Shown here: piece by piece, positions 2,404 to 63,830 of the stretch | How the letters are laid out: each line of letters opens with the position of its first letter | Numbering within the stretch: the stretch's first letter is position 1 | Assembly (NCBI GenBank): GCA_017441945.1 | Contig: JAFSBG010000165.1 | Location: 1,214 to 65,213 of the forward strand | Source: Clostridia bacterium | GTDB lineage: Bacteria; Bacillota; Clostridia; Oscillospirales; Butyricicoccaceae | Reading direction: 5' to 3' | Length of the DNA stretch: 64,000 bases | Made by a program: the position numbers and the translations under genes | Notes under the pieces: generated by a model | What the model saw: the letters and a program-made list of their open reading frames with translations, nothing else | What the model was told of the DNA's origin: nothing | Databases searched by the model: none

Positions 2404-2715
2404 GGACGTGCAATGCACGCCCCTACGGATTTTGATAAATGTAGTATGCCTGGGATGAGGATTAAATAAGGATTTACCTCTCCGTCACGCAGTAGCGTGC
2501 CACCTCTCCTGAAACAGGAGAGGCAAGTGAGATAGTACTAACCACAGGAGATCCATCACTGCGTTCAGGATGACATGGGCTTTTGTAGGGGCGGGTCTCT
2601 GCGCCCGCCCGCGGTCACGGCACGCCGTGACCCCACGGAGCTTGTGCGTTTGCGGAATGTCGAGGACGCCATTCCCTCAAAATCCCCCTTGCCTCCCTCT
2701 GAAGAGAGAGGCGAG
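2404..2715. repeat. intergenic hairpin mosaic A
   Basis: Contains a CCCTAC-tailed REP at 2404-2426 (GGACGTGCAATGCACGCCCCTAC) and a GTAG-headed REP at 2585-2612 (GTAGGGGCGGGTCTCTGCGCCCGCCCGC). Also a hairpin at 2613-2632, a degenerate REP at 2652-2678, and the CTCCGTCAC.. / CCTCTCCTGAAACAGGAGAGG / CCTCCCTCTGAAGAGAGAGG modules. All of these recur elsewhere in the window. Confidence 0.85.
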
Positions 2716-2784
2716 AAATGATTATATGTAGTCCGCAAAACAACAAAAGGACGGCGTTTTGATACGCTGTCCTCATGGTTTATC

Positions 2785-3345
2785 TTATTTTACGATTTCC
2801 TTCTTGTACTTTGCCTTGCCATCTCTGAAGATGTTGCCGCCGTGGCAGTCGATAGCGCAGATGAGAGGCATATCCTTAACTGTGAACTTCTTTACAGATT
2901 CGCAGCCGAGATCGTGATATGCTACAACTTCCAGTTCCTTAACTGCTTCAGCAACGACAGCCGCTGCACCGCCGATAGCGCAGAAGTATACAGAGCCGTT
3001 TCTGATGATAGCATCGACAGTAGCCTGATTTCTTTCGCCCTTACCGATCATTGCGCCGAGACCGAGGTCGAGAAGGCGTGGGGAGAATGGGTCCATACGG
3101 CTCGATGTTGTAGGACCGCAGGAGCCGACGACTTCGCCTGGCTTTGCTTCTGTTGGACCTGCATAGTAAATGATAGAGCCGTCGATAGGATATGGAGTCT
3201 GCTCGCCGTTGTCAAGAGCTGCCATAATGCGCTTATGAGCTGCGTCACGGGATGTGTAGATTGTACCTGTAAGCTCGATAGCGTCGCCTGCCTTGAGAGT
3301 CTTTGCTGCTTCTTTGATGTCCGCTGTGTTTATCTTGATAGCCAT
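2785..3345 (-). CDS. Fe-S type hydro-lyase beta subunit (class I fumarate hydratase / tartrate dehydratase beta-like)
   Basis: 186 aa with the blocks TGTIYTSRDAAHKRI, GPTTSSRMDPF and AIGGAAA, typical of the Fumerase_C/TtdB family. The start overlaps the upstream stop (TAATG). No alpha subunit is present in the window. Confidence 0.85.
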   Translation of the reverse strand: MAIKINTADIKEAAKTLKAGDAIELTGTIYTSRDAAHKRIMAALDNGEQTPYPIDGSIIYYAGPTEAKPGEVVGSCGPTTSSRMDPFSPRLLDLGLGAMIGKGERNQATVDAIIRNGSVYFCAIGGAAAVVAEAVKELEVVAYHDLGCESVKKFTVKDMPLICAIDCHGGNIFRDGKAKYKKEIVK

Positions 3346-4067
3346 TAGATCTTATCTCCTATTCTTTTTACTCTTTCTAATATATCTCTTATGGATATTT
3401 TTTTACTTTCATTTTCCCTTGTTTCCTCTGCTCTGACAGTATCCGCAAGATCATTGAAGTCTGTGGCAAGACCGTTTATCTTGTCCTTTAAGCTTTCCCA
3501 GACTTCTTCCGTGTTTTCCTCGATTTTTGACTGAGGAACAACAACAGTTTTTGTTTTTATCTGTGCCTCAAGCTGAGCATTTTTCGCTCTGAGACTTTCG
3601 ATTTCAGCCTGATATGAGCTGACGTCGATTTTGCCGATGCTCTTTTCACGCTCAAGGGCGAGGGCAAGGACTTTATTTTCATTTTCAAGCCCTTCAAACT
3701 TCTCTTTTACCGACTTTTCTTTTTCTATGTAGTCGTTGAGCTGAGCCTTTATGCTCTTGATGCTTTCAAAAAGCTCATTCTTCTCATTCTGAAGCTTTTC
3801 GTTAGCTTCGACAAGAGCGGCATTTTCATTCTTTATATCTTCATTCTGAGCGTTGATTTCATCCATTTCCGCCTGAAGGTCAGCCTTTGCCACTTCAACA
3901 GCGTTGTCTCGCTCATTTATAAGCTTTTCGTTTTCTTCCTGAAGCTGGGTATACTTTTCCTTTTCTTCCTCAAGGGCTGCCTTCTGCTTATCGACAAGAT
4001 TATCAATATAAGCGATGACCTGCTCCTTGCTGAAGCCCATCAGGGATTTTTTAAAAATCTTTCCCAA
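3345..4067 (-). CDS. DivIVA-like coiled-coil protein
   Basis: 240 aa, with a TTG start immediately after the upstream stop. The N-terminus GFSKEQVIAYIDNLVDKQ resembles the DivIVA N-domain. The rest is E/K/N/L-rich heptad coiled coil. Confidence 0.6.
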   Translation of the reverse strand: MGKIFKKSLMGFSKEQVIAYIDNLVDKQKAALEEEKEKYTQLQEENEKLINERDNAVEVAKADLQAEMDEINAQNEDIKNENAALVEANEKLQNEKNELFESIKSIKAQLNDYIEKEKSVKEKFEGLENENKVLALALEREKSIGKIDVSSYQAEIESLRAKNAQLEAQIKTKTVVVPQSKIEENTEEVWESLKDKINGLATDFNDLADTVRAEETRENESKKISIRDILERVKRIGDKI

Positions 4068-4403
4068 CTATATCACCTCATGCTTTCTGAGAATATCCAG
4101 CACTTCTTCCTCTGTTTTAAAACCGACAGAGCGTGTTTTTTCCACACCGTCAATATAGAGATTGATGCAAGGAATGCTGATGATATTGCTTTTTGCGGCA
4201 GCCAACGGGGTATCGTCAATATCGACACCGTATACCTTGACATTATCATAATACTGATGACCGATATTTTCAAGCCCCCACATCATATTTTTGCTGTTTT
4301 CGTCCCACTTTGCCATAAAAAACATGATGAACGGACGTTTTTCATTGCGGATTATGTAACCAAAATCATCGTTGGTCAGCATTTCAAGCCTTTTGTTATC
4401 CAT
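4068..4403 (-). CDS. thioredoxin-fold protein lacking the CxxC active site
   Basis: 111 aa, colinear with thioredoxin (FMFFMAKW...VKVYGVDIDDTPLAAAKSNIISIPCINLYIDG). WDENS stands where WCGPC is expected. Confidence 0.65.
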   Translation of the reverse strand: MDNKRLEMLTNDDFGYIIRNEKRPFIMFFMAKWDENSKNMMWGLENIGHQYYDNVKVYGVDIDDTPLAAAKSNIISIPCINLYIDGVEKTRSVGFKTEEEVLDILRKHEVI

Positions 4404-4596
4404 AGCGCACCTCTTTAAAACCTAAGTCGTTATGTTATATTTATATGTTTAACCTATCCCGGATGCTCATGCGCATAGGATTATCATTATATCTTACACT
4501 ATTATAACACATACTTGCAGAAAAACCAATGTTTTTTTCTTTACAATATCAAAAATTTTTGATATTATAATAAAGGTAAGTGGATTGATTTTTATT

Positions 4597-4906
4597 GCGC
4601 CGGGGACGGGATTTATTAAGCTTGATGCGGACCGTCGAGGACGCCGGTCCCTACATGGGCTTGTTCCATTGGGTATCCTCCGGGGTGAATATCAGAATGA
4701 CAGGCTATTTTAAGCCTCCTTCGGGTCGAGGGAGGTGTCACGCAGTGACGGAGGGAGCGAAATCTATACGATGCATCGCAGATACCGAAACTGTCAACTG
4801 TCCATTATCAACTTTCAACTGCTGACATCAGGTGTGGAAAGATTCTTCGGGTTTCACCCTCAGAATGACAGTAAGCAGACGGACGAGCAATGCTCGCCCC
4901 TACAAT
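4597..4906. repeat. intergenic hairpin mosaic B (upstream of tRNA-Arg)
   Basis: REP at 4627-4654 (GCGGACCGTCGAGGACGCCGGTCCCTAC) and REP at 4881-4903 (GGACGAGCAATGCTCGCCCCTAC). Also the GGGGTGAATATCAGAATGACAG module, the GAGGGAGGTGTCACGCAGTGACGGAGGGAG module, and GAAAGATTCTTCGGG..CAGAATGACAG at ~4838-4878. Confidence 0.85.
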
Positions 4907-4914
4907 TTAAATAT

Positions 4915-4991
4915 GTCTCCGTAGCTCAGCTGGATAGAGCGTCAGACTCCGACTCTGAAGGCCGTGCGTTCGAATCGCATCGGGGATGCCA
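4915..4991 (+). tRNA. tRNA-Arg (anticodon CCG)
   Basis: Hand-folded cloverleaf of 77 nt. Acceptor GTCTCCG/CGGGGAT, D arm GCTC-AGCTGGATA-GAGC, anticodon arm TCAGA-CTCCGAC-TCTGA (anticodon CCG), variable loop AGGCC, T arm GTGCG-TTCGAAT-CGCAT, discriminator G, encoded CCA. Confidence 0.9.
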
Positions 4992-4992
4992 G

Positions 4993-5024
4993 AAACCCAT
5001 TTCGTATGAAATGGGTTTTTTCTA
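4993..5024 (+). terminator. rho-independent terminator after tRNA-Arg
   Basis: AAACCCATTT-CGTATG-AAATGGGTTT hairpin followed by a T-run. Confidence 0.8.
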
Positions 5025-5242
5025 TAAAACCCACGCTATTTTATTGAGATTCGTAATATATTGTTGAATAGCCCCTTTTTCCATGCTACAATGACCGAAG
5101 AAATGCTGTTTTTCGCCGGCTGCAACCATTGGTTGACATATTTCAAGGTTCAGTTGGTAGCTTTTTTTCTGCATTTTTTATAAAATCAAATAGTAATCGG
5201 ACGGGCAAACATCATCTGTCTTTCCGATGAAAGGTCATTCTT

Positions 5243-7091: not shown

Positions 7092-8303
7092 ATGATTACC
7101 CAGACTATTGCGCTTAAAAATCTCGGCCGCAGACCTGTCCGTACATGGTGCATGATTTTCTTCGTTTTCATGCTGGCAGCTTCGCTTTTCCTCAGCTCTG
7201 TCCTTGTCGACAGTATGGAAAGCACAATCGAAAAGACAACAAACCGGATGGGCGCCGATGTTATCGTTGTGCCTAAGGAATTTGAACGCGAAATGGCAGA
7301 TTCTCTCTTCCTCGGCGAGCTTTGCAACTTCACATTTGACAAGAAGTGGGTTGAAAATATCTCAGCCGTTGAAGGCGTTGCAAAGGCTTCACCTCAGCTT
7401 TATATGGAAACTCTCGATGCAGCCTGCTGTGCCGCACCTGTTCAGCTTGTGGCTTATGACCCTGAAACAGACTTTATCATCACTTCCTGGCTTGAGGACG
7501 AAAATATCCCTGCGCCAAAGAAGGGCGAAGTTATCGTAGGCTCTCTTGTAACCGCTGATGCAGAAGGCGGCGACGGCATTCTTCTCTTCAATACATTATT
7601 CCCTGTAGTGGCACATCTTGAAAAGACAGACACAAACTACGATACCTGCGTATTTATGACATACGAAACAGCTCAGGAAATCATGAGCAGTGAAAAGTGG
7701 TATGAAACATTCCGCGAAGAGCCTGTTACAGACGAGCTTGCTTCGACAGTCATGATCAGAATTGAAAACGGTGTGGACAAGAAGGATGTTGCCCGCAACA
7801 TCAACTTCAAGATGGACAAGGAATCCCCTGTTTCCGCTTACACAACAAACACAATCATGAGTGAGGCTATGGACGCTTCCGAAAGCATGAAGGGCTATAC
7901 ATCTGTTCTTATCACACTTCTTCTCGTTCTCGTAATCGTTGCTCTTGTATGCGTATTCACAATTACAATCAATGAAAGAACAAAGGAATTCGGTATTCTC
8001 TCCTCTCTCGGCGCTTCCACAGGCAAGCTCTGCCAGATAGTGCTCGGCGAGGGCTTTATTATCGGCTTCACAGGCGGTCTTATCGGCTGCGCAGTTTCGG
8101 CTGTTGTTCTTATAATCTTCAAGGGCACTCTCACAGTCCTTCTTGAGCTTCCAAGACTCAATACAGGCTTTGGCTATCTTATGATGCTGGGTGCAAAGTG
8201 CCTCGGCATCGCTCTCATCGTTTCTGTTCTGGCTTCCCTTTATTCGGCATGGAAGGTCAGCCGCAGCGAGCTTCACACACTTATCAAAGGGGAGGAATTG
8301 TAA
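7092..8303 (+). CDS. ABC transporter permease, FtsX/MacB type
   Basis: 403 aa with an N-terminal TM, a ~250-aa extracytoplasmic domain and a C-terminal FtsX domain (INERTKEFGILSSLGAS plus 3 TM). The stop overlaps the ATPase start. Confidence 0.85.
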   Translation: MITQTIALKNLGRRPVRTWCMIFFVFMLAASLFLSSVLVDSMESTIEKTTNRMGADVIVVPKEFEREMADSLFLGELCNFTFDKKWVENISAVEGVAKASPQLYMETLDAACCAAPVQLVAYDPETDFIITSWLEDENIPAPKKGEVIVGSLVTADAEGGDGILLFNTLFPVVAHLEKTDTNYDTCVFMTYETAQEIMSSEKWYETFREEPVTDELASTVMIRIENGVDKKDVARNINFKMDKESPVSAYTTNTIMSEAMDASESMKGYTSVLITLLLVLVIVALVCVFTITINERTKEFGILSSLGASTGKLCQIVLGEGFIIGFTGGLIGCAVSAVVLIIFKGTLTVLLELPRLNTGFGYLMMLGAKCLGIALIVSVLASLYSAWKVSRSELHTLIKGEEL

Positions 8304-8965
8304 TGCTTATCACAAAACAGCTCACAAAGACATTTTCCCGCCAGAAGAATGACTTTGACGCAGTTCACGAAGTGGATTTTGAAATAAATCCGGGCGATTT
8401 CTGCGTGCTTACAGGTCCTTCCGGCTGCGGCAAGAGTACATTCTTCCATATGATATGCGGCATCACAAAGCCTGACTCAGGCGAGATTCTCTTTGACGGT
8501 CAGAACATTGAAAAGGACAGCGCTCAGAAATGGGCAGCCCGCAGAGCAACCGACATCAGCTATGTTCTTCAGGGCGACAGCCTGCTTGCCAACTTCACAG
8601 TTCTTGAAAACATCTGTCTGCCGCATCAGCTTTCTTCAAAGTCTGTCGACCTTAAAGATAAGGCTCTCGAAATCCTCCGCGAATTCGGTCTTGAAAATAT
8701 GGCTGACGAATACCCTGCAAATCTTTCGGGCGGTGAACGCAGACGTGTTGCCATTGCCCGCGCATTTGTTCACGACCCTAAGCTTGTTGTAGCCGACGAG
8801 CCTACAAGTGACCTTGACGAGGAAAACACAAAAATCATTCTCGATTATTTCACACGTCAGGCAAAAAACGGCAAGGCTATTCTCATCAGTACTCATGACC
8901 TTTCCTTTATCAACGATGAAATGAAGCATTATGTGATGAAGAAAGGCGTTATGACAAAAGTCTAA
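8303..8965 (+). CDS. ABC transporter ATP-binding protein
   Basis: Walker A GPSGCGKST, signature LSGGERRRV, Walker B LVVADEPTSDLD. ATG 8303 follows GGGGAGG and overlaps the permease stop (TAATG). The ORF-track start at 8198 lies inside the permease gene. Confidence 0.9.
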   Translation: MLITKQLTKTFSRQKNDFDAVHEVDFEINPGDFCVLTGPSGCGKSTFFHMICGITKPDSGEILFDGQNIEKDSAQKWAARRATDISYVLQGDSLLANFTVLENICLPHQLSSKSVDLKDKALEILREFGLENMADEYPANLSGGERRRVAIARAFVHDPKLVVADEPTSDLDEENTKIILDYFTRQAKNGKAILISTHDLSFINDEMKHYVMKKGVMTKV

Positions 8966-9006: not shown

Positions 9007-9177
9007 TGCCAGATGGCATAAAATATGCTAAAATTAAGAAAAATACCCCTCCGCAACCTGGGGTTGACAAAAATCGAGCGGAAGTTGGTGGTATTTTCAC
9101 CGGATTTTCACTAAAATCAAACCATAATAAATAAGGTTGTGCACACCTCACCATGTCCCAAGGAGGTAACTTTATCT

Positions 9178-10449
9178 ATGAATATTCATCTTAAAATACA
9201 GGAGCTTCGCAAGAATGCAGGGCTTTCTCAGGAGGCTCTTGCCGAGCAGCTTGGTGTTTCCCGTCAGGCGGTTTCCAAATGGGAGTCGGGCATAAATATT
9301 CCCGACATCGACAAGATCATCGCCATCTCAAAAATCTTCGGAGTTTCCCTTTCTGAGCTTCTCACGGGAGAAAAGGAGGAGACTTCGGCGGCTGAAACTG
9401 CACCTGAATCTGCCCCTGTCCCCGACGAAAAATATGAGGAGCTTTTGCAGCAGCATCTTATGCAGGTCGATGCCATGCTCAAAGAATCGGGCAGAAAAAA
9501 GCGCTCGGGCTGGAGCATTGCTTTCCGAATTATTGCGGCGGTCGTCGCCTGCTATCTGGTGCTTTTCTATGTCGACAAGCTTCAGCGTATGGAAAACAAT
9601 ATAAATAATCTCCAGAGCAATGTGGGCAATATCCGCACCGACATAAATCATCAGATTTATTCTATCCAGAAGGAGATTTCCGAAAGTTTAAAGAAGGAAT
9701 ACGGTCTTATCAGCGACTATACTCTCGACTACCGCGATATGGATTTCCCTCGCCGCACAGTTGTGCTTGATATTTCGGCTTCGCCGAGACTCTGGAATGA
9801 GGGGGACAGCATGGCTTTTATTGTTGAAACCGACGGCGAGCAGATTTCCTGCGAGGGAATTTACAACAACGGCACGGTTTATGCCGAGATTGAGGTGCCT
9901 CTCTCGGACAATATTCAGGTTTCGGCGCTTATCACCAATGGCGGCACTGTAAAGCAGGAGAAGATAGACGAACTTCACGAGCTTCTCAGTATGCATCTGC
10001 TTGAAGTGGACGGTCACGGCTCGATTCGCTCGTCACGCGTACTTGGTGATGACAAGCTGACGATGTCGGGCGATATTTCTGTTTATGTCCACAGCAGGCT
10101 TTATGACGAAAGTCAGCCTGTTTTGTCGCGCATAAAGTCGGCAACTTTTGAGCTTATTGAAAACGGCAAGGCGACACAGACTGTCGACCTGATGAAAGAT
10201 TGTCTAGACAATACTTTCGCCGGCGTTATTGACAATGTCCGCATTGATTTTGATTATACTGTAGGCACGATTGAACGCACCATGAAGGTGGGTGACACTT
10301 ATGAATTTGTGGCTACAATCGTCGACAGCAACGATGTCACTTACAAGGGCATTCTTGAAAGCATTATGGTGACAGATGACCTCTCTGTCGAGCACAACAA
10401 GCGCGACTACGGCGAATTTGAAGTGACTTTGCCGGAGAAAGTTGAGTAA
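9178..10449 (+). CDS. membrane-anchored XRE-family (HTH_3) transcriptional regulator, paralogue B
   Basis: ATG 9178 lies 8 nt after AAGGAGG. MNIHLKIQELRKNAGLSQEALAEQLGVSRQAVSKWESG, one TM and an extracytoplasmic domain colinear with 5243-6493. Confidence 0.8.
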   Translation: MNIHLKIQELRKNAGLSQEALAEQLGVSRQAVSKWESGINIPDIDKIIAISKIFGVSLSELLTGEKEETSAAETAPESAPVPDEKYEELLQQHLMQVDAMLKESGRKKRSGWSIAFRIIAAVVACYLVLFYVDKLQRMENNINNLQSNVGNIRTDINHQIYSIQKEISESLKKEYGLISDYTLDYRDMDFPRRTVVLDISASPRLWNEGDSMAFIVETDGEQISCEGIYNNGTVYAEIEVPLSDNIQVSALITNGGTVKQEKIDELHELLSMHLLEVDGHGSIRSSRVLGDDKLTMSGDISVYVHSRLYDESQPVLSRIKSATFELIENGKATQTVDLMKDCLDNTFAGVIDNVRIDFDYTVGTIERTMKVGDTYEFVATIVDSNDVTYKGILESIMVTDDLSVEHNKRDYGEFEVTLPEKVE

Positions 10450-10450
10450 T

Positions 10451-10945
10451 ATGACATTACCAAACCGAAAAAGCACAAGGCTGCCAGGATTTGATTACAG
10501 CAGCGCTAACACTTATTTCGTCACGCTGTGCACCAGAAACAAAGAAAAGATTTTATCTGAGATAACCGTAGGGAATGGCGTCCTCGACATTCCGCAGATA
10601 AAACTTTCTGCTTTCGGGAAAATTGCCGAAAAGTATATTTTACAGCTGAACGATTTTTATGGTCATATTTCGGTTGAAAATTATATTATAATGCCTAACC
10701 ATATTCATCTTCTTATACGGATAGATAATGCCTGCGGTGCGTCGGGGACGCCGCACCCTACAAATATGGAGCTTCCGAAGTTTATTTCCACATTCAAGCG
10801 TTTCTACAATAAAGAATATGGTTTTAATATCTGGCAGACTTCCTATCATGACCACATCGTCCGAAACGAAGATGATTACAATAAAATATGGCAATATATC
10901 GAAAATAATCATTTAAAATGGACTGACGATATTTATTTTGAATAG
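10451..10945 (+). CDS. REP-associated tyrosine transposase (RAYT; IS200-like Y1/HUH single-domain transposase)
   Basis: 164 aa: LPGFDYSSANTYFVTLCTRNK, HUH motif MPNHIHLLI, catalytic Tyr block WQTSYHDHIVRNEDDY. There is no TnpB or IS end. REP clusters follow immediately downstream. ATG 10451 is preferred over the overlapping TTG at 10442. Confidence 0.85.
   Translation: MTLPNRKSTRLPGFDYSSANTYFVTLCTRNKEKILSEITVGNGVLDIPQIKLSAFGKIAEKYILQLNDFYGHISVENYIIMPNHIHLLIRIDNACGASGTPHPTNMELPKFISTFKRFYNKEYGFNIWQTSYHDHIVRNEDDYNKIWQYIENNHLKWTDDIYFE
10568..10594 (+). repeat. REP hairpin embedded in frame in the RAYT CDS (GTAG head)
   Basis: GTAGGGAATGGCGTCCTCGACATTCCG, translated VGNGVLDIP. It differs at 1 position by eye from the intergenic copy at 44602-44628. 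Stem GGAATG/CATTCC, loop GCGTCCTCGA. Confidence 0.85.
10734..10761 (-). repeat. second, inverted REP hairpin embedded in frame in the RAYT CDS (CCCTAC tail)
   Basis: GCGGTGCGTCGGGGACGCCGCACCCTAC, translated (C)GASGTPHPT. It has the same loop TCGGGGACGC and CCCTAC tail as the copies at 57460 and 58471, but a private compensated stem GGTGCG/CGCACC. Confidence 0.85.
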
Positions 10946-10948: not shown

Positions 10949-10978
10949 AAAGCACCCTGATGGGTGCTTTTTATTTTG
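10949..10978 (+). terminator. rho-independent terminator after RAYT
   Basis: AAGCACCC-TGAT-GGGTGCTT followed by TTTATTTT. Confidence 0.75.
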
Positions 10979-10984
10979 CGTTTG

Positions 10985-11245: not shown

Positions 11246-11249
11246 TTTA

Positions 11250-31440: not shown

Positions 31441-31474
31441 ACACATCAATTTTACCCCCCTAAAAGGAAAAACT

Positions 31475-38232: not shown

Positions 38233-38270
38233 ATTATGCGTATAGAAATACTCTTTTGAAAGGAGTTTTT

Positions 38271-53462: not shown

Positions 53463-56400
53463 TTAAACACCGTGTTCAGCGCGGCGCTTCATGAGTTCAT
53501 ACTTTTCCTTAGCTGCCTTTTCAGCCTTAGCGAAGAGAACTTCAGCACGTTCTGGGAACTGACGTACGAGACCTGTGTAACGTACTTCGTTCATGAGGAA
53601 CTTTCTGTAGTTTTCAAGAGTTGGTTCCTTAGAGTCGAGCTGGAAGCCGTTCTTGCCTTCAGCAACAAGACGTGGGTCGTAGCGGAAGAGGTGCCAGTAA
53701 CCGGATTCAACAGCGAACTTGATTTCGGACTGGGAGTTTGTCATACCGCCCTTAAGGCCGTGCATTTCACATGGAGCATAACCAACGATGAGGGATGGGC
53801 CGTTGTAGCTTTCAGCTTCAACGAGAGCCTTAACTGTCTGAGGCATGTTAGCGCCCATACCAACCTGTGCTACGTATACGTAGTGGTAAGCCATAGCGAT
53901 ACCTGTGAGGTCCTTCTTAGCGATTGCCTTACCTGCTGCAGCGAACTGAGCTGTCTGGCCGATCTGTGTGGACTTGGAAGCCTGACCACCTGTGTTGGAG
54001 TAAACTTCTGTGTCGAATACGAAGATGTTGATGTCTTCGCCGGATGCGATTACATGGTCGAGACCGCCGTAACCGATATCGTATGCCCAACCGTCACCAC
54101 CGAAGATCCAGATAGACTTCTTGGAGAGGAAGTCCTTATATTCGAGGATATCCTTAGCAGCCTGTGTATCGAGCTTTTCGAGGAGAGCTACGAGAGCTTC
54201 TGTTGCCTTGCCGTTCTTCTGGCCGTCTGTCATTGTATCGAGCCAGTTCTGGCAGATAGCCTTGCATTCGTCGCATTCAAGAGTATCCTTGAGGTCTGCG
54301 ATCTTAGCAGCCATTCTTTCACGGATCTGACGAACACCTGTTGCCATACCGAGACCAAATTCAGCATTGTCTTCGAAGAGGGAGTTAGCCCATGCTGGAC
54401 CCTTGCCGAGCTTGTTTACTGTGTATGGAGTTGTAGGTGCGGAACCGCCCCAGATGGAGGAACAGCCTGTTGCGTTAGCAATGTACATTCTGTCGCCGAA
54501 GAGCTGAGTTACGAGACGAGCATAAGCTGTTTCTACGCAACCTGCGCAAGCGCCGGAGAATTCGAGCATTGGCTGACGGAACTGGGAGCCCTTAACTGTG
54601 GAAGCTGGGAATGCTGGGAATTCCTTGTATTCTACGTTTTCAACTGCGTAATCGAATACAGCCTGCTGATCGTGCTGAGATGCCTGTGGCTTCATTTCGA
54701 TAGCCTTTACTGGGCAGATCTTTTCGCAGAGGCCGCAGCCCATACAGTCGAGAACGGAAACTGCCATTGTGAACTGGTATTCACCGAGGTCCTTACCGAT
54801 CATTGCCTTGGACTTGATGGAAGCTGGAGCAGCAGCCATTTCATCCTTGTTGAGAGCGAATGGACGGATAGCAGCGTGGGAACAAACCATTGCACACTGG
54901 TTACACTGGATACACTTCTGAGCGTCCCAAGCTGGAACGTCAACAGCAACGCCGCGCTTTTCATAAGCAGCTGCGCCAACTGGGAATGTACCGTCAGGCA
55001 TAGATGTGAATGTGGAAACTGGGAGCTTGTCGCCCTGCTGTGCGGATACTGGGTTGAGGATTTCCTTAACGAACTTTACGAGTTCTGGACGGTTGCCCTT
55101 AACTTCTGCTTCAACAGAGTCGTCAACGAGGTTAGCCCAGTCAGCTGGTACTTCGATCTTGTTGAGAGCCTTGTAACCAGCGTCGATAGCTGCGTAGTTC
55201 ATGTTAACGATATCTTCACCCTTCTTACCGTAGGACTTGAGAGCAGCTGCCTTCATGTATTCAACAGCTTCTTCGATTGGAAGAATGCCGGAGAGTGCGA
55301 AGAATGCAGACTGGAGAATTGTGTTAGTTCTCTTGCCCATACCGATTTCGCGAGCGAGGTCGATAGCGTTTACTGTATAGAAGTTGATGTTGTTCTTAGC
55401 GATGAATGCCTTAACCTTGTTAGGGAGGTATTCAGCGATTTCTTCTGGCTTCCACTGGCAGTTGAGAAGGAATGTGCCGCCTGGCTTTACGTCCTGAACC
55501 ATGTCATACTTTGTGATGTAGGATGGGTTGTGGCAAGCAACGAAGTCAGCCTTTGTTACGAAGTATGTGGAACGGATTGGGGAATCACCGAAGCGGAGGT
55601 GGGAAACTGTGATACCACCTGTCTTCTTGGAGTCGTATGCGAAGTAAGCCTGTGCATACTTATCTGTGTGGTCACCGATGATCTTGATGGAGTTCTTGTT
55701 AGCACCAACAGTACCGTCGCCGCCGAGACCCCAGAACTTGCAGGAAACTGTGCCAGCAGCTGTTGTGTCTGGGCAGTTTGGATCGAGATCGAGGGAGAGG
55801 TTTGTAACGTCGTCTGTGATACCAAGTGTGAACTGACGCTTTGGCTCAGCAGCCTTCATGTTTTCGTATGTAGCGAAGATAACTGCTGGTGGAACGTCCT
55901 TGGAGCCGAGACCGTAACGGCCGCCTGTTACGTTAGCCTGGATGCCTTCGTGAGCAAGAGCTGTTACAACGTCGAGGTAAAGTGGTTCGCCGATTGCGCC
56001 TGGTTCCTTTGTTCTGTCGAGAACAGCGATGTTCTTAACTGTCTTAGGAAGAACTGCAGCGAACTTTTCTGTTACGAATGGACGGTAAAGGCGAACCTTA
56101 ACGAGACCAACCTTTTCGCCCTGAGCGAGCTTATAGTCGATAACTTCTTCGATTGTGTCACAAACGGAACCCATAGCAACGATAACATCTGTTGCATCTT
56201 CAGCACCGTAGTAGTTGAAGAGGCCGTAGTTTGTGCCGATCTTTTCGTTAACCTTGCCCATGTATTCTTCAACAACTGCTGGAAGAGCGTTGTAGAATGG
56301 GTTGGAAGCTTCACGAGCCTGGAAGAAGATATCTGGGTTCTGAGCTGTACCGCGGAGAACTGGGTGTTCTGGGTTGAGGGCACGAGCACGGAATTCCTTG

Positions 56401-57002
56401 ATAGCGTCAAAGTCTACCATTTCCTTAAGATCTTCGTAATCCCAAACAGCGATCTTCTGGATTTCGTGGGATGTACGGAAACCATCGAAGAAGTGAAGGA
56501 ATGGAACACGACCCTTGATAGCTGCGAGATGAGCTACAGCACCGAGGTCCATAACTTCCTGCTGGTTGGAAGAAGCGAGCATTGCGAAACCTGTCTGACG
56601 GCAAGCCATAACGTCGGAATGATCGCCGAAGATGGAGAGAGCATGAGAAGCAAGAGCACGAGCGGAACAGTGGATAACACCTGGGAGAAGTTCGCCTGCG
56701 ATCTTGTACATGTTAGGGATCATGAGGAGAAGGCCCTGAGATGCAGTGTAAGTTGTTGTCAAAGCACCAGCTGTGAGGGAGCCGTGAACAGCACCAGCAG
56801 CACCAGCTTCGGACTGCATTTCGATAACCTTAACTTCCTGACCAAAAATGTTCTTCTGGCCTACAGCACTCCAGGAGTCTGTAAGTTCTGCCATAACGGA
56901 AGATGGAGTAATAGGGAAGATACCCGCAACTTCTGTGAAAGCATAGGACACATGAGCGGCAGCGTTGTTACCGTCCATGGTCTTCATTTTTCTTGTTACC
57001 AT
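53463..57002 (-). CDS. nifJ: pyruvate:ferredoxin (flavodoxin) oxidoreductase
   Basis: 1179 aa, single-chain PFOR. Two 4Fe-4S ferredoxin motifs (CIQCNQCAMVCSHAA; CMGCGLCEKICP), a TPP-binding block (GGDGWAYDIGYGGLDH) and a strong RBS. Confidence 0.97.
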   Translation of the reverse strand: MVTRKMKTMDGNNAAAHVSYAFTEVAGIFPITPSSVMAELTDSWSAVGQKNIFGQEVKVIEMQSEAGAAGAVHGSLTAGALTTTYTASQGLLLMIPNMYKIAGELLPGVIHCSARALASHALSIFGDHSDVMACRQTGFAMLASSNQQEVMDLGAVAHLAAIKGRVPFLHFFDGFRTSHEIQKIAVWDYEDLKEMVDFDAIKEFRARALNPEHPVLRGTAQNPDIFFQAREASNPFYNALPAVVEEYMGKVNEKIGTNYGLFNYYGAEDATDVIVAMGSVCDTIEEVIDYKLAQGEKVGLVKVRLYRPFVTEKFAAVLPKTVKNIAVLDRTKEPGAIGEPLYLDVVTALAHEGIQANVTGGRYGLGSKDVPPAVIFATYENMKAAEPKRQFTLGITDDVTNLSLDLDPNCPDTTAAGTVSCKFWGLGGDGTVGANKNSIKIIGDHTDKYAQAYFAYDSKKTGGITVSHLRFGDSPIRSTYFVTKADFVACHNPSYITKYDMVQDVKPGGTFLLNCQWKPEEIAEYLPNKVKAFIAKNNINFYTVNAIDLAREIGMGKRTNTILQSAFFALSGILPIEEAVEYMKAAALKSYGKKGEDIVNMNYAAIDAGYKALNKIEVPADWANLVDDSVEAEVKGNRPELVKFVKEILNPVSAQQGDKLPVSTFTSMPDGTFPVGAAAYEKRGVAVDVPAWDAQKCIQCNQCAMVCSHAAIRPFALNKDEMAAAPASIKSKAMIGKDLGEYQFTMAVSVLDCMGCGLCEKICPVKAIEMKPQASQHDQQAVFDYAVENVEYKEFPAFPASTVKGSQFRQPMLEFSGACAGCVETAYARLVTQLFGDRMYIANATGCSSIWGGSAPTTPYTVNKLGKGPAWANSLFEDNAEFGLGMATGVRQIRERMAAKIADLKDTLECDECKAICQNWLDTMTDGQKNGKATEALVALLEKLDTQAAKDILEYKDFLSKKSIWIFGGDGWAYDIGYGGLDHVIASGEDINIFVFDTEVYSNTGGQASKSTQIGQTAQFAAAGKAIAKKDLTGIAMAYHYVYVAQVGMGANMPQTVKALVEAESYNGPSLIVGYAPCEMHGLKGGMTNSQSEIKFAVESGYWHLFRYDPRLVAEGKNGFQLDSKEPTLENYRKFLMNEVRYTGLVRQFPERAEVLFAKAEKAAKEKYELMKRRAEHGV

Positions 57003-57167
57003 TTGAGTTTTCCTCCATAATTTATTTTATAGGGTTTTTCTTATTATCTCACCTTATATGATAACAAATAAACTGAAAATAATCAAGCCCTTTTTCATTG
57101 AAAATATTAAATTTACTTTTATAACAGGGATAAATAATTGGATATTTTGGATGAGAATGGTGGAGGA

Positions 57168-57718
57168 TATGTCACCATAGGTGACGCGATATGTGTGTTG
57201 CACACGATATGTTCCTGCGGAACGCGATATTCGGCTTCGCCGAGCGATATGTTTTCCTGCGGAAAACATTAAGATATCTGCGGCGCGATTTAATAAGCGG
57301 GAGGGCGCACAGAGACCCTCCCCTACGCACAATCCCCTTGCCTCTCCTGTTTCAGGAGAGGTGGCACACGAAGTGTGACGGAGAGGTAAATCTTATTCAA
57401 TCCGTGACGGAGTCACACCGTACTTTTTCACTTTTCACTTTTACTTATTACTTTCTATTGCGGACCGTCGGGGACGCCGGTCCCTACAATATCTCTTGCC
57501 TCCCCTGCATACACTCCCCTTGCCTCCCTCAGACGAGGGAGGTGGCTGAGCATAGCGAAGTCGGAGGGAGTGAATCTTATTGAATGTGATTTATCACACC
57601 GTACTTCTTCAATATTGAACGGCGAGAGCAAGCCCCCGCCCTACGTTCTCTGCGGGACGCCCTCAGCACCGTCCCTTGCATAATTTAAATGGGCGGGTTT
57701 CCATGCCCGCCCGCAATT
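57168..57718. repeat. intergenic hairpin mosaic U (GCGATAT array copy 5)
   Basis: The array GTCACCATAGGTGAC + GCGATAT units spans 57171-57287. REPs lie at 57297-57326, 57460-57487 and 57652-57679, with a headless REP at 57691-57714. Also reversed CTCCGTCAC../CCTCTCCTGTTTCAGGAGAGG, TTTTCACTTTTCACTTTTACTTATTAC words, CCTCCCTCAGACGAGGGAGG, GTGATTTATCACAC, and a 47-nt unit at 57604-57650. Confidence 0.9.
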
Positions 57719-58273: not shown

Positions 58274-58545
58274 TTAATAAATGGGAGGGCGCAGAGACCC
58301 TCCCCTACGGAATTTTTTTGCAGACTATTTTGTAGGGGCGGGTTTCCATGCCCGCCCGCCTTATTCAATCCGTGACGAAGTCACACCGCACTTCTTCAAT
58401 ATTGAACGGCGAGAGCAAGCCCCCGCCCTACGTTCTCCACGGGAGCAGCAAGCGGCTCCCCTACAATTTTCGGACCGTCGGGGACGCCGGTCCCTACATT
58501 TTTCGGGAGGGCACAGAGACCCTCCCCTACGGCTGTTTGTGAGTG
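58274..58545. repeat. intergenic hairpin mosaic V
   Basis: CTGCGATGCATTTAATAA, REPs 58283-58308 and 58332-58359, GTGACGAAGTCACAC, a 47-nt unit at 58391-58437, and REPs 58441-58464, 58471-58497 and 58505-58530. Confidence 0.9.
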
Positions 58546-58554
58546 TTGATTACC

Positions 58555-59106
58555 CTATCTATAAACCTTTTTCACCCATTCTTTCCTGATTTCCCATATA
58601 TTGCCGTAGTAATTTTTATTTCCTGTGATGGTGATATCATCATCGAAAAGCCGCTGCCAGCTTTGCTCGATTTCCCGCTTTATCTGGGGGTAAAAGGCTG
58701 TCGAAAAGGCTTTTATATCGTTTGTGCCGTATTCACTGAGCATTTCGCCATGGCGTTTTTTGTCCTTTTCGTCAAGGGGGATATAGCTGTAATTTGTGAT
58801 GGAGGTCCACTTTTCGATATTGATTTTCGTGATGATTTCCTGGTCGATTTCAAGCTCAAGCATTACAAAGCCGGGCTGAAGCATCATCGTGGCTTCCTTC
58901 TCCATCGAAACCCAGACAGGATAGTCGGCATCCCGAGGCTTATCGGGAAGATATTTTACCAGCCAGTCGTAGCATTTCAGTACAAGACCTTCGTGGTCGT
59001 CGGCAGTTTTTGCAATAATGTGCCGTTTTGCCGTGTATCTGCCCTCTTTTTCAATTATTTCAGCCACATTTTCGTTCTGTTTTGTCCAGACTGTGATTTT
59101 TGACAT
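58555..59106 (-). CDS. DUF3841-like hypothetical protein
   Basis: 183 aa from ATG 59106 (RBS AAGAGG), beginning MSKITVWTKQNENVAEIIEKEGRYTAKRHII. The family name is tentative. The ORF-track extension translates the repeat array. Confidence 0.5.
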   Translation of the reverse strand: MSKITVWTKQNENVAEIIEKEGRYTAKRHIIAKTADDHEGLVLKCYDWLVKYLPDKPRDADYPVWVSMEKEATMMLQPGFVMLELEIDQEIITKINIEKWTSITNYSYIPLDEKDKKRHGEMLSEYGTNDIKAFSTAFYPQIKREIEQSWQRLFDDDITITGNKNYYGNIWEIRKEWVKKVYR

Positions 59107-59120
59107 GATTGTTGTACCTC

Positions 59121-59445
59121 TTTTATCACCTGCGGTGATGCGATATGCGCATAGCGCGCGATATATAAATGCGATATATCCTGCAGATGCGATATGTTTT
59201 CCGTGAAAACACAAATGTATCTGCGATGCGATTTAATAAGCGGGACGTCGGGGGCGCCGTCCCCTACAAGAAAGTTCTATAGCCTCCCCTGTGCAAGGGG
59301 AGGGGGACCGTTGGAACAACGGTGGAGGGGTTGTTACCTATAAAAATGTGATTTATCACACATTGCTTTTTCAATATTGAGCGGCGAGAGCAAGCCCCCG
59401 CCCTACGTTCTCCACGGGAGGGCGCAGAGACCCTCCCCTACGATG
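59121..59445. repeat. intergenic hairpin mosaic W (GCGATAT array copy 6)
   Basis: Array at 59124-59230, REP 59240-59267, CCTCCCCTGTGCAAGGGGAGG + reversed CCACCGTTGTTCCAACGGTCCCCC, GTGATTTATCACAC, a 47-nt unit at 59365-59411, and REP 59416-59441 ending 6 nt before the pnuC stop. Confidence 0.9.
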
Positions 59446-59447
59446 GA

Positions 59448-60429: not shown

Positions 60430-61010
60430 TGCGATGCATTGGATAGGGCGGGAGCGGCAAGCGGCTCCCCCACGCACACATCCTTTGCCTCTCCTGTGAA
60501 TTCACCCCACAAAGCAGGCTTTGCGGGGACCCCATTATCGGGGAGGTGCCCCAACGGGGCGGAGGGGTTGTTCCCTATTTAATTGCCTAATATGCCGTAG
60601 GCACACCTTGTAAAATGGGGTTTCCAAAGGGGCGTAATTTACCCCAAACGACAGGTCGTTCGGGGACCCCGCAAAATTAAATAAATGCGGCGACACTCGT
60701 CGCCGGTCGCACCCCGGTGCTCCTGTGGTCAGGTGGTCAAACTGCCTGACTTTCACCCCAGACAGCAGGCTGTCTGGGGTGTGAATCAAGGGGATGCTTT
60801 ATTCGGGAGGGCGCGGAGACCCTCCCCTACGATTTGACCACGAAAGAATAGTTGTAGGGGCGGGTTTCCATGCCCGCCCGCGGGACGTCGGGGGCGCCGT
60901 CTCCTACAATGGGATTGTGCCATTGGGGTGGAAAGATTCTTCGCGAGCAACGGGGTCCCCGGGCGACCTGTCGTCTGGGGTGAATATCAGAATGACATTG
61001 CATTGCGCGG
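60430..61010. repeat. intergenic hairpin mosaic X
   Basis: CTGCGATGCATTGGATAGG, REP 60450-60473, reversed GGGGTCCCC..TGAATTCACAGGAGAGG, GGGGACCCCGCAAAATTAAATAAATGCGGCGACACTCGTCGCC.., GGTCAAACTGCCTGAC, and CACCCCAGACAGCAGGCTGTCTGGGGTG. Then REP 60805-60830, linker, REP 60854-60881, REP 60882-60907, and GAAAGATTCTTCGCG. Confidence 0.85.
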
Positions 61011-62147: not shown

Positions 62148-62157
62148 GATAATATGA

Positions 62158-62190: not shown

Positions 62191-62194
62191 TTTG

Positions 62195-62470
62195 CACTTT
62201 GTGCAAGTGAAGTGTTTGCATGACAAACGATAATGTGTGACAAGTCACATTGAATAGGCTCTCTCCCCCCGTCACTGCGTGACACCCCCCTCCTCAGAGG
62301 GAGGCAAGAGGCTTGTGCATTTGCGGGACGTCGAAGGCGCCGTCCCCTACAAAACGGTTTTTCGTGGATTGTTTTGTAGGGGCGGGTTTCCATGCCCGCC
62401 CGCGGGATGTTGATAAGCACACCCCATAAAAAGGGGTTGCCCCCGACAGCAGGGTACGGCTGTCGGGGGC
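62195..62470. repeat. intergenic hairpin mosaic Y
   Basis: Mini-hairpins TTGCACTTTGTGCAA and GTTTGCATGACAAAC, then GTGTGACAAGTCACATTGAATAGG and CTCCCCCCGTCACTGCGTGACACCCCCCTCCTCAGAGGGAGGCAAGAG. Also REP 62323-62350, REP 62376-62403, and hairpin GCCCCCGACAGC-AGGGTACG-GCTGTCGGGGGC. Confidence 0.85.
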
Positions 62471-62574
62471 ATCTGAAGAAAAAATTATGTTATGAAAGGA
62501 GTTACCTTTGGAAACGTAATTTTCAGTTTATATTTTTAGAGGTCAATGAAAAGATTTATCTTATTTACAATAAT

Positions 62575-63321
62575 TTATGTGTGTGCCATGCCGTCGACAC
62601 TGAGCACAACGCCTGTGATATAGGATGCATCGTCGGATGCTAAGAATACGAAAGCGTTTGCGATGTCCTCTGGCTGGCCGAGTCTGCGGAGAGGAATATT
62701 TTTGATGAGAGGCTCGATGACTTCCTTTGGCACAGCCTTCATCATATCTGTTTCGATGATGCCCGGAGCAACTGCGTTGACGCGGATGCCCTTTGGACCG
62801 AGCTCACGAGCGAGAGAAACTGTGAGACCGTTTACTGCAAACTTGGAAACAGGGTATGCAAGACCGGATGGCTGACCGTGCTTGCTGACCATTGAAGATG
62901 TGGAAAGAATAACGCCTGTGCCGCGTGCCAGCATACATTCGGAAGCTGCGCGGATAGAATTGAAAACGCCCTTTACATTGAGGTCCATGACCTTATCGAA
63001 CATTTCCTCTGTATATTCTGTAAACGGTGTGCTTTCCGAAACGCCTGCGTTATTGACGAGAATGTCAACACAGCCGAAAGTTTTGCGGATATGGCTGAAA
63101 GCCTGGCGTACAGATTCAAGACTTGCAAGGTCAGGCGCGATGCCTGCGATTTTGCTTTCAGGATATTTTTCACGAAGCTGATTTACCGCCTTATCTGCCG
63201 AAGCCTGTGAACTTGCTGCGATGATTACCGTTGCGCCTTCACGAAGGAATGCGTCTGCTGTTGCATAGCCGATACCACGGCTGCCGCCTGTTATGAGAGC
63301 TATCTTACCCTTGAGTTTCAT
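62575..63321 (-). CDS. SDR family oxidoreductase (FabG-like)
   Basis: 248 aa with TGGSRGIG cofactor motif, NNAG, and a catalytic YPVSK (YxxxK). Confidence 0.9.
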   Translation of the reverse strand: MKLKGKIALITGGSRGIGYATADAFLREGATVIIAASSQASADKAVNQLREKYPESKIAGIAPDLASLESVRQAFSHIRKTFGCVDILVNNAGVSESTPFTEYTEEMFDKVMDLNVKGVFNSIRAASECMLARGTGVILSTSSMVSKHGQPSGLAYPVSKFAVNGLTVSLARELGPKGIRVNAVAPGIIETDMMKAVPKEVIEPLIKNIPLRRLGQPEDIANAFVFLASDDASYITGVVLSVDGMAHT

Positions 63322-63424
63322 AATTTTTCCTCCTGTATAACTTTAATTTTATCTTGGCTAAAGTATACCATAATAGTGTACTATTGTCAATAGGCAAATT
63401 ACACTTTTTTAGTAAAAATTAAAA

Positions 63425-63830
63425 TATTTTTTTACCTCCCGGAAAAAGGGGCCCCGCAAAGCTTGCTTTGTGGGGTGGCTCTAAGAGGGAGGCGGGAAAA
63501 GATGTACCTGCGATGCATCAGATAAGGCGTGACGAGTAATGCTCGCCCCTACAAGAAAGCCAATGTAGGGGAGGCGTTCCGCCTCCCCTACATGGGATTG
63601 TGCGTAGGGTACGGCTGCCTCCCTTGCCTAAAGGGAGGGGGACCATCGGAACGATGGTGGAGGGATTCATGACGTACCGCTTGTCACACATTATATCCGC
63701 ATCACACGCAGTGTGTATATAATCGGTGTCTGCGACGCATTAAATAAAATTCTCTCCCTCCGTCTTGCTACGCAAGCCACCTCCCTCCTCAGAGGGAGGC
63801 AAGAATAAGATTGTGCAAACGGGACGGATT
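63425..63830. repeat. intergenic hairpin mosaic Z
   Basis: GGGGCCCCGCAAAGCTTGCTTTGTGGGG.., CTGCGATGCATCAGATAAGG, REP 63531-63552, and the double-headed palindromic REP 63565-63591 (GTAGGGGAGGCGTTCCGCCTCCCCTAC). Also GTAGGGTACGGCTGCCTCCC, reversed GGGGGACCATCGGAACGATGGTGGAGGG, a GTGTATATAATC array remnant, and CTCCCTCCGTCTTGCTACGCAAGCCACCTCCCTCCTCAGAGGGAGGCAAGA. Confidence 0.85.

Follow-up and report, generated by a model that had tools for sequence, protein, structure and literature searches.

The DNA discussed here is a 64,000-nucleotide (nt) stretch of contig JAFSBG010000165.1 from a Clostridia bacterium, which we call the window. It carries about 55 short hairpins headed by the tetranucleotide GTAG, together with an open reading frame (ORF) at 10442-10945 whose motifs, profile matches and predicted fold identify it as a REP-associated tyrosine transposase (RAYT). 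We propose that the hairpins are repetitive extragenic palindromic (REP) sequences, set in a mosaic like the bacterial interspersed mosaic elements (BIMEs), and that they belong with RAYTs of TnpAY1 subclass 2.4; we would put the probability of this reading at roughly 0.85. Work on REPs and RAYTs has been done almost entirely in Proteobacteria, with some in Cyanobacteria and Bacteroidetes. The source organism appears to represent a poorly sampled, uncultured Clostridia lineage of gut type, the best RAYT match among species-representative genomes being 58% identical. Our comparisons draw on 80 fetched loci encoding RAYT homologues (the related loci), mostly from Oscillospirales-type metagenome-assembled genomes (MAGs) plus Ruminococcus flavefaciens and Gemmiger formicilis, whose homologues are 39-58% identical to the window protein by tblastn (33% on re-scoring for that of L076).

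A first-pass annotation, made from the sequence letters, had put the number of GTAG(GG)-headed hairpins in the window at about 50 or more, and a census that takes in degenerate heads and stems bears this out: about 55 REP-like copies were catalogued, in about ten families and at ~0.6-0.9 per kb, and every copy listed earlier was recovered in place or a few bases away. The hexamer GTAGGG, or its complement CCCTAC, occurs 54 times, where dinucleotide-preserving shuffles average 12.45 and never exceed 20, and the 45 nt past each GTAGGG head mostly hold an immediate G-C-rich inverted repeat. A hairpin of at least 6 bp is headed by 38 of the 248 GTAG sites, a number that ranged from 0 to 5 over twenty first-order Markov simulations, and the share is 1-3% for other tetranucleotides; among the 4-mers lying directly 5' of a perfect 6-bp hairpin, GTAG ranks second, after AAAA. 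Under a strict detector (stem of at least 6 bp with at most one mismatch, loop of 3-11 nt, stem starting 0-1 nt past GTAG), REP density is 0.58 per kb in the window, 0.26 per kb in the related loci, in-gene copies counted, and 0.03 per kb in 80 loci of other Clostridia anchored on pyruvate:ferredoxin oxidoreductase (PFOR). The hairpins have stems of 6-12 bp and folding energies of -6 to -14 kcal/mol as DNA, with fold z-scores of -2.3 to -7 in all REP families except family e, and in the predicted DNA folds the head GTAG stays unpaired, as expected of REPs of this type, which are defined by a GT[AG]G placed 0-2 nt 5' of the stem. The same REP types recur in other genomes. In the window a candidate cognate RAYT is at hand, since the gene at 10442-10945 holds two REPs and is followed by three more just downstream. 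Two further counts from the first-pass annotation agree with ours: the GGGCGGG family, put at about 12 copies, has 5 exact copies and 13 with variants, and all 8 copies of the GGGAGGG family were found. The families are as follows.

Family a, GTAGG-G/A-NNN-GRCG-YCCY-CGRC-NNN-CC, 16 copies
Family b, GGGCGAGC-att-GCTCGTCC, 7 copies
Family c, GGGCGGG-tttccatg-CCCGCCC and variants, 13 copies
Family d, GGGAGGG-tctcYgYg-CCCTCCC, 8 copies
Family e, with a cttg loop, 3 copies
Family f, 2 copies
Family g, a "double foot" palindrome, GTAGGGGAGGCG-ttc-CGCCTCCCCTAC, 1 copy
Family h, with a cacg loop, 1 copy
Families i and j, short types, 2 copies each

The individual copies and the gene are listed by coordinate, strands being given relative to the plus strand of the window; heads or feet are degenerate in the copies at 2654, 23018 and 60882.

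2404-2426, minus, family b variant GGGCGTGC-att-GCACGTCC
2585-2610, plus, family c variant GGGCGGG-tctctgcg-CCCGCCC
2654-2679, minus, family a (AAT), degenerate head TGAG
4629-4654, minus, family a (ACC)
4881-4903, minus, family b, 12 nt upstream of a tRNA-Arg gene
10442-10945, plus, RAYT/TnpAREP gene of TnpAY1 subclass 2.4, as identified by Pfam, NCBIfam, PDB profile and Foldseek
10568-10593, plus, family a (AAT/ATT), in-gene REP site 1, encoding VGNGVLDIP
10736-10761, minus, family a (TGC/GCA), in-gene REP site 2, encoding GASGTPHPT
10978-11250, unstranded, REP mosaic block of ~273 bp bounded by the direct repeat TGCTTTTT(T)ATT
10992-11017, minus, family d, left member of a heads-inward doublet
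11043-11067, plus, family c variant, right member of the doublet with the 10992 copy
11218-11239, plus, family b, right end of the mosaic block 10978-11250
20473-20494, plus, family b, left member of a pair with heads outward, interior 139 nt
20634-20659, minus, family a (GAC), right end of the heads-outward pair with the 20473 copy
23018-23043, minus, family a (AAC), head GCAG
24192-24217, minus, family d, doublet
24242-24268, plus, family c variant, doublet
26489-26502, minus, family j short element GTAGGGCGTAGCCC with TCTATTTAAT tail
29836-29862, minus, family c variant, doublet in reversed order
29888-29913, plus, family d, doublet with the 29836 copy
30027-30049, minus, family b, head GCAG
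31394-31419, plus, family a (ACC), upstream of the next gene's real start
38204-38229, minus, family a (ACT), upstream of the next gene's real start
39471-39494, plus, family h, GGACAATT-cacg-AATTGTCC
39580-39602, plus, family b
43406-43431, minus, family c
44602-44627, plus, family a (AAT)
44696-44721, minus, family a (GAC), mismatch flipped to A.G
46447-46473, plus, family c variant
46522-46547, minus, family a (ACC), mismatch flipped to A.G
49457-49470, minus, family j short element GTAGGGCGCGGCCC
49555-49580, minus, family c variant
50027-50049, minus, family i element GTAGGGTACGGCTGCCTCCCTTG
53144-53169, minus, family c, doublet
53193-53219, plus, family c variant, doublet
57299-57326, minus, family d
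57462-57487, minus, family a (ACC)
57621-57644, minus, family e, GGCGGGGG-cttg-CTCTCGCC, weak stem
57691-57712, plus, family c body lacking the GTAG head
58283-58308, minus, family d, doublet
58332-58357, plus, family c, doublet
58408-58530, minus, head-to-tail array of families e, f, a and d, heads exactly 33 nt apart
59242-59267, minus, family a (GAC)
59383-59441, minus, head-to-tail pair of family e and family d
60450-60473, minus, family f, head GTGG
60805-60830, minus, family d, doublet
60854-60879, plus, family c, doublet
60882-60907, minus, family a (GAC), one foot mismatch
62325-62350, minus, family a (GAC), doublet with family c
62376-62401, plus, family c, doublet
63529-63552, minus, family b variant
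63565-63591, unstranded, double-foot REP GTAGGGGAGGCG-ttc-CGCCTCCCCTAC, a perfect 12-bp palindrome
63604-63626, plus, family i element GTAGGGTACGGCTGCCTCCCTTG

Family a is the set for which the first-pass annotation had claimed a nearly invariant head and 10-nt loop around three freely co-varying stem pairs. The compensation is real. All but one of the 16 window copies pair perfectly, with ACC (5 copies), GAC (5, one with a degenerate foot), AAT (3), TGC, AAC and ACT as the variable triplets; across the 14 distinct sequences among them 99.1% of cells are standard pairs, and the 15 double-sided changes are accompanied by no one-sided change and no wobble. None of 500 shuffles reached the covariation score, and pairing falls to 19-54% when the 3' partner is shifted by 1-3 columns. 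When the related loci are added to the window, compensation continues to exceed chance: 154 of 160 family a copies have perfectly complementary triplets, of 17 types, and the three variable pairs, counted over 65 distinct sequences, have changed on both sides 77 times, with 1 wobble and 7 unpaired cells. The 10-nt loop, in contrast, is not an invariant open loop. In the apical part of the hairpin a 1x1 mismatch of two purines is followed by two G-C pairs, both invariant, and the hairpin ends in a YCCY tetraloop, with GTAG single-stranded. The mismatch column is never standard-paired in the 65 sequences, being always purine-purine (G.A, A.G or A.A). A G.T mismatch is likewise retained within the family b stem. 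The A-T to T-A exchange reported between the usual form of this family, GGGCGAGC/GCTCGTCC, and the copy at 2404, GGGCGTGC/GCACGTCC, is genuine; in the family d window copies a potential eighth pair would be a T.G wobble. Families b, c and d, and within family a the GAC copies, have a stem closed by a G-C foot GGG...CCC; the ACC and AAT copies of family a have only two such pairs. Selection on a folded structure, for which the first-pass annotation had argued, accords with stems that covary far beyond chance around a fixed head and fixed unpaired parts. The stems probably do not covary freely, because the triplet is tied to the RAYT paralogue and is matched by nearby dispersed copies, and the stem variants look like lineage-linked subfamilies rather than the products of free drift.

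The RAYT gene probably starts at ATG 10451, which would give a protein of 164 amino acids (aa). Its motifs are the HuH motif NHIH, WQ (as IWQ) and the Y motif YIENNH, in which the window protein has exchanged P for H; the consensus of 28 aligned homologues keeps N-P, and individual rows read YIENNP. The Pfam model Y1_Tnp is matched at 24.4 bits, just above its cut-off of 23, and the NCBIfam model NF047646 (REP_Tyr_transpos) at 51 bits, the IS200 model scoring 11.5 bits. The best PDB match to a profile built from the 28 homologues was E. coli TnpAREP (4ER8; E = 1.8e-8), with the transposases of ISDra2 and IS608 ranking behind it, and an AlphaFold (AF2) model with a confidence score (pLDDT) of 79 likewise has 4ER8 as its top Foldseek match (TM 0.57, root-mean-square deviation 3.4 A, as against 6-12 A for insertion sequence (IS) transposases), at a sequence identity of only ~18%. 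These matches, the subclass 2.4 motifs, the in-frame REPs, the G-C foot and double foot and the predicted TnpAREP-like HuH/Tyr fold together identify the product as a RAYT of TnpAY1 subclass 2.4. It does not have the marks of an IS200/IS605 element: there is one copy in the window, the Y motif is of class 2 and the hairpins stand in inverted orientation. Searching the window by tblastn with 57 RAYT proteins as queries revealed neither another RAYT nor a remnant of one, the match at 23000 being only a REP-encoded stretch. For the window protein 485 homologues were found.

Two family a REPs lie in frame inside this gene, at 10568-10593 with the head on the coding strand and at 10736-10761 with the head on the opposite strand, a placement that the first-pass annotation overlooked. 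It had taken residence in conserved coding regions as a sign against repeats of this kind; two copies do reside there, but in-gene REPs are a known property of subclass 2.4 (PMC6006769), so the placement is no refutation, and the other copies are extragenic. The peptides that the two REPs encode are nearly invariant among the 28 aligned homologues except for two residues each, and these residues change as reverse-complement codons: N/I, D/V, T/G, T/C, G/A. In the AF2 model site 1 forms the loop of a beta-hairpin, and site 2 a disordered loop (residues 98-107) between the HuH strand and the next helix. At least one in-gene GTAG hairpin is present in 79 of the 80 related loci and exactly two in 57; the heads point outward in 55 of 56 single-gene two-REP cases, and the pair brackets the HuH motif with a median outer span of 206 nt. 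The triplets are complementary in 105 of 107 copies. Among 68 homologues the codons that make up the heads are GTA in 99%, GGG in 100% and CCT in 94%, while at other conserved four-fold residues of the same proteins the top codon accounts for 33-48%. Head codons that are frozen at synonymous sites imply that constraint or homogenisation acts on the DNA and not on the protein.

The in-gene REPs also diversify with the gene that houses them. RAYT lineages differ in their REP type, and 55 of 57 genes have a single type at their two sites; the types are family a, a perfect-stem variant (GATG-cccW-CATC), d and c, and cttg-loop, cacg-loop and att-loop forms. With the REP-encoded residues removed, 46 of 57 proteins agree in REP type with their nearest neighbour, and the types cluster. 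Within family a the triplet is equal at both sites in 34 of 43 genes, and in one MAG three RAYT paralogues carry the triplets ACC, GAC and GTC respectively. Dispersed copies follow suit: 18 of 28 family a copies in the flanks share their triplet with the local gene, against a permutation mean of 5.2 and a maximum of 16, and 27 of 106 whole hairpins in the flanks lie within two mismatches of the local gene's own (permutation mean 5.9, maximum 18). Several of the related loci have two to four RAYT paralogues within a few kb, and window families a, b, c, d, e and h each have a counterpart embedded in a distinct RAYT lineage elsewhere. The association of one RAYT with five or more REP families, which the first-pass annotation had thought unusual, is hence likely an effect of the window's edges, and is softened further because the E. 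coli TnpAREP serves three REP types (PMC8266576). Most likely the window families are served by several RAYT paralogues, others of which lie outside the window.

Two observations on other RAYT genes touch on the in-gene sites. Beside full-length paralogues, locus L008 has a shortened RAYT-like ORF (8051-8365) from which exactly the segment from site 1 through site 2, HuH included, is gone; its junction keeps only GTAGGGGCG, as if the inter-REP cassette had been deleted. The proteins P0100, P0037, P0119, P0117 and P0031 contain two to six tandem in-frame extra site-2 peptides (e.g. DGQSGTPVT), which are REP arrays inside coding sequence and fit the "short repeats" of subclass 2.4 mentioned in the 2018 account (PMC6006769).

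Outside the RAYT gene the window copies are all extragenic and sit between tandem, convergent and divergent gene pairs. Three ORFs drawn over REPs, at 4735-5067, 57191-57583 and 58281-58589, were rejected as genes, being made of the repeats or upstream extensions, and the N-termini of the ORFs at 31382-31981 and 38067-39107 are upstream extensions whose real starts lie downstream of the REPs. Seven heads-inward doublets have 23-25 nt between heads, usually with a family d or a copy on the left and a family c copy on the right, and three of the seven have the spacer GGATWTTGACYACGAAAGAAYRGTT in common. In the array at 58408-58530 four REP types follow one another in one orientation across AT-rich spacers of 7-9 nt; its 33-nt periodicity had raised the possibility of a clustered regularly interspaced short palindromic repeat (CRISPR) array, which was ruled out because the four units are different REP types and the spacers are 7-9 nt long. 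The heads-outward pair at 20473-20659 spans 187 nt, and the in-gene cassette of the RAYT 194 nt; no homology was detected between its 139-nt interior and the inter-REP coding segment of the RAYT. Mixed REP types, alternating orientation and recurrent spacers are those of BIMEs, although the copies at 58408-58530 and 59383-59441 run head to tail. The doublets are not REPINs (REP doublets forming hairpins), since they mostly join different types (d/c, a/c) across unrelated spacers.

The family-specific orientation bias noted in the first-pass annotation holds, heads being on the minus strand in 13 of 16 family a copies and 7 of 8 family d copies. Part of this bias comes from doublets whose polarity is fixed: family c, with which d is usually paired in them, runs the opposite way, with 9 heads on the plus strand and 4 on the minus. 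GC skew is flat along the window and gene orientation is mixed.

Several features of the REP flanks were also recorded. Immediately 3' of the hairpin, in any family, GC comes next in 24 of 37 flanks, and a TTATTWAAT-like motif lies 2-5 nt past the hairpin in about a third of copies (TAAAT in 11 of 37 flanks, with about 1 expected); this motif may belong to the element itself, or may be a signal for cleavage or targeting. Most REPs have no T-tract and were rejected as intrinsic terminators; the true terminator-like hairpins are another module. Several other short intergenic repeats are modules distinct from GTAG REPs: GCCTCCCC-loop-GGGGAGGC hairpins, related CCCCTTCCCCTCAAGGGGAAGGC hairpins, often after CACCTCATCCACCGCAAGCGGTCCC, GGGGTCCCCGCAAAGCCTGCTTTGTGGGGT hairpins and the motif TGTCTCCGACGGATTAAATAGG. 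They are found at 20700-20770, 31335-31385, 39515-39570, 44500-44545, 49810-50020, 53340-53380, 60500-60540, 63445-63480 and elsewhere, and as they stand beside REPs in fixed order, the REPs are seemingly parts of larger mosaics. A module of ~140 nt with three GTATGTAATC-like repeats occurs at 20495-20633, 39603-39740, 49640-49790, 53040-53143 and 63680-63760; its ends, which resemble TTATTYAATCCGTGAC...GTCACAC and CTGCGGCGCATTTAATAGGGC, abut REP tails, and it fills the heads-outward pair at 20473-20659.

Comparison with close relatives gives a glimpse of how this mosaic changes. One contig, L081 (sample ERZ28654211), is from the same strain (99.9% identical to the window). L162 is a useful relative, with a RAYT protein 93% identical to that of the window, and keeps both in-gene REPs unchanged. 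The ~273-bp block at 10978-11250, which holds three REPs and other modules just past the RAYT terminator, is absent from its orthologous site. Conversely, opposite the 7 nt at 8954-8960 of the window, L162 has non-REP repeat modules that take up ~190 nt. The mosaic turns over between close relatives, and the event seen is the insertion or deletion of a block, not a clean insertion of a single REP.

We suggest that when the DNA is transiently single-stranded, the head strand of a REP would fold into its hairpin, and that the HuH/Tyr enzyme would read the unpaired 5' GTAG(GG) together with unpaired features of the hairpin, which in family a would be the purine-purine mismatch and the YCCY tetraloop. 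Cleavage and rejoining nearby by the enzyme would then cause REPs to spread, to be deleted or to be rearranged over time. Most of the stem would need only to be paired, which would permit compensated variants, each travelling as a subfamily. In this clade the RAYT gene carries what appears to be its cognate REP pair in frame at two fixed loop positions, heads outward around HuH. The model is built on analogy with the E. coli TnpAREP and the TnpA of IS200/IS605.

Several points weigh against so full a reading. Cleavage, the cleavage site and mobilisation in the Clostridia clade are presumed from these systems, and the single-stranded DNA substrate and the further paralogues are likewise presumed. 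The window RAYT stands at 51 bits against an equivalog cut-off of 80 for NF047646, and would be a distant relative of the modelled set. Its own triplets are AAT and TGC, whereas ACC and GAC are the variants most often met among dispersed copies. For families b, c, d, e and h the window offers no cognate gene, and their pairing with further paralogues is a prediction. The search for insertion polymorphism of single REPs met with no close relative in the metagenome collection, where the best PFOR match has 68% protein identity. Finally, the edges of the one block that differs form a direct repeat of 11-12 nt, unlike the products of IS200-like peel-and-paste, and its loss by slippage is possible.

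It is also conceivable, although we think it unlikely, that selection acts on the hairpins chiefly at the level of RNA, where they would serve in transcripts as 3'-end stabilisers, terminators or regulatory stem-loops; the covariation would then be a record of RNA structure, and the RAYT would be incidental. Many REPs do lie just past stop codons, as at 29836 (16 nt after) and 59416 (7 nt after). In co-directional intergenic regions ~20 of 26 copies have their head on the sense strand, clustered copies not being independent, a few REPs pass a permissive terminator scan, and RNA roles have been proposed for many REPs by Di Nocera et al. (PMC3733652). Yet the near absence of G-U wobbles, 1 against 77 double-sided changes, suits a constraint on DNA better than one on RNA, and an RNA role does not account for the conserved purine-purine mismatch, for REPs in both orientations and in four or five divergent promoter-side regions, or for the general lack of a U-tract; an Rfam scan of the window returned only tRNA and no family matching the hairpins. 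The unpaired GTAG, moreover, is a RAYT signature that is kept at synonymous sites in RAYT genes. A different objection would make larger blocks, resembling miniature inverted-repeat transposable elements (MITEs), the mobile units, moved by another enzyme or by slippage with REPs as passive passengers. The sole presence/absence difference is indeed the ~273-bp block of three REPs and modules bounded by TGCTTTTT(T)ATT, the ~190-nt module block of L162 facing 7 nt in the window is free of REPs, and REPs recur beside the same neighbouring modules and tail motif. We nonetheless find this improbable: single REP types recur in many contexts, combinations and genomes, REP type and RAYT lineage go together, neither a DDE transposase nor terminal inverted repeats were noticed in connection with the mosaic blocks, and a slippage deletion would fit the junction repeat too.

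That the sequences are at bottom RAYT protein motifs (VGxGVLDxP, GxSGTPxPT), with the dispersed copies as decayed gene fragments, has in its favour the near invariance of both in-gene peptides in the 28 aligned homologues and the size of the heads-outward pair at 20473-20659, 187 nt, near the 194 nt of the in-gene cassette. It is nevertheless very improbable, as the variable residues change by reverse-complement codons, so that pairing and not the amino acids is conserved, and the synonymous positions of the heads are frozen. Both peptides are predicted to lie in loops, one of them disordered, other RAYT lineages have wholly different REP types, and so different peptides, at the same sites, and tblastn found no other RAYT-like coding remnant in the window. 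GTAG REPs that belong with subclass 2.4 RAYTs remain the reading that we prefer.

In the account that defines it, subclass 2.4 (group 4 of Bertels 2017) is marked by NH[IFV]H, WQ and YIxNNP, and in-frame in-gene REPs, feet of three G-C pairs and "double foot" REPs are among its traits (Quentin, Siguier, Chandler, Fichant 2018, PMC6006769). The window has in common with it the motifs, a size of ~165-195 aa, GTAG at a G-C-rich stem foot, a double-foot REP (63565-63591), in-frame REPs between HuH and Y, and several subfamilies per locus. That account stresses Cyanobacteria and Bacteroidetes and variable HuH-Y insertions; the Clostridia RAYTs differ in having two fixed sites, a constant heads-outward layout and a REP type that co-diversifies with the gene, some of which its Figure S10 may show. 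The E. coli TnpAREP acts on three REP types (y, z1, z2), requires GTAG and an unpaired irregularity whatever its sequence, and tolerates swapped upper stems, a few lower-stem bases being important (PMC8266576); the window pattern of invariant head, mismatch and loop with compensated stems matches this published recognition model. As in the E. coli REP/BIME system (Ton-Hoang 2012; Messing 2012, 4ER8; Corneloup 2021, PMC8266576), there is a 5' GTAG guide next to an irregular palindrome, and there are alternating-orientation mosaics, recurrent spacers and several REP types. The E. coli system differs in being of subclass 2.2, in its longer bulged stem and in REPs that flank the gene, and the window head is extended to GTAGGG.

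The window hairpins also agree with the superfamily described by Di Nocera, De Gregorio and Rocco (2013, PMC3733652) in their GTAG terminus, palindromes of 20-40 bp, association with RAYTs, head-head, tail-tail and head-tail dimers and occasional in-gene REPs; the text of that survey has no Firmicutes or Clostridia, and the lineage studied here would extend its taxonomic range. With the TnpA of IS200/IS605 the RAYT shares a predicted HuH/Tyr fold and, by analogy, recognition of a single-stranded DNA hairpin with an unpaired base, but in the window there is one RAYT, no TnpB and no same-strand end hairpins, and its Y motif is Y---NP-like and not Y---Q. REPINs (Bertels and Rainey 2011) are inverted REP pairs at a fixed short distance, as are the doublets here; unlike REPINs, the doublets usually pair different types (d with c) and do not zip into one long hairpin.

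It should be clear from these comparisons that REPs, GTAG heads, multiple families, BIME-like mosaics, compensated stems and in-gene REPs were already known. A literature search for RAYTs in Firmicutes returned no relevant report. In the literature consulted we did not find the Clostridia/Oscillospirales setting, the two-site heads-outward layout with a site upstream of HuH, the synonymous freezing of the heads or the co-diversification of in-gene type and RAYT, with the reservation that figures of the 2018 paper may overlap with part of this.

Two neighbouring features of the window fall outside this argument. The gene just before the RAYT, at 9139-10449 with an 8-nt overlap, encodes a protein of ~420-436 aa with an N-terminal HTH_3/phage CI-repressor-like domain; it is also found in L081 and L162, and between the window and L162 it is far more diverged than the RAYT. 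At 53472-57020 on the plus strand an ORF of 1182 codons, with no Pfam match, runs antisense to the PFOR gene (53463-57002, minus strand); we regard it as an artefact of codon bias, because the PFOR gene uses no TTA, CTA or TCA codons, which leaves the complementary frame free of stops, and several other window genes have long antisense ORFs of the same kind.

A bolder proposal, which we advance tentatively and hold to be more doubtful than probable, is that the in-gene REP pair is no tolerated insertion but a functional and obligatory part of the RAYT gene, a protected master copy or specificity barcode for the REPs that the enzyme serves, perhaps serving also as a cis-site for self-regulation or self-deletion. 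Hints of this come from the synonymous freezing of the heads, the concerted change of the two sites, the switching of type between lineages and the inter-REP loss in L008. If it were true, RAYT-REP pairing would be readable from sequence, and there would be a handle on how REPs are copied.

The family of RAYTs described here is widespread in gut and rumen Oscillospirales, and each gene appears to carry its cognate REP in frame, which offers a simple rule by which RAYT paralogues and REP families can be matched computationally. REPs also yield many spurious small ORFs in MAG annotation, recognisable by VGxGVLDxP and GxSGTPxPT peptides, and they are likely break points in assembly. Across at least 80 lineages, many REP types with compensated stems and a kept mismatch and head amount to a natural experiment from which the way the enzyme reads its substrate may be decoded.

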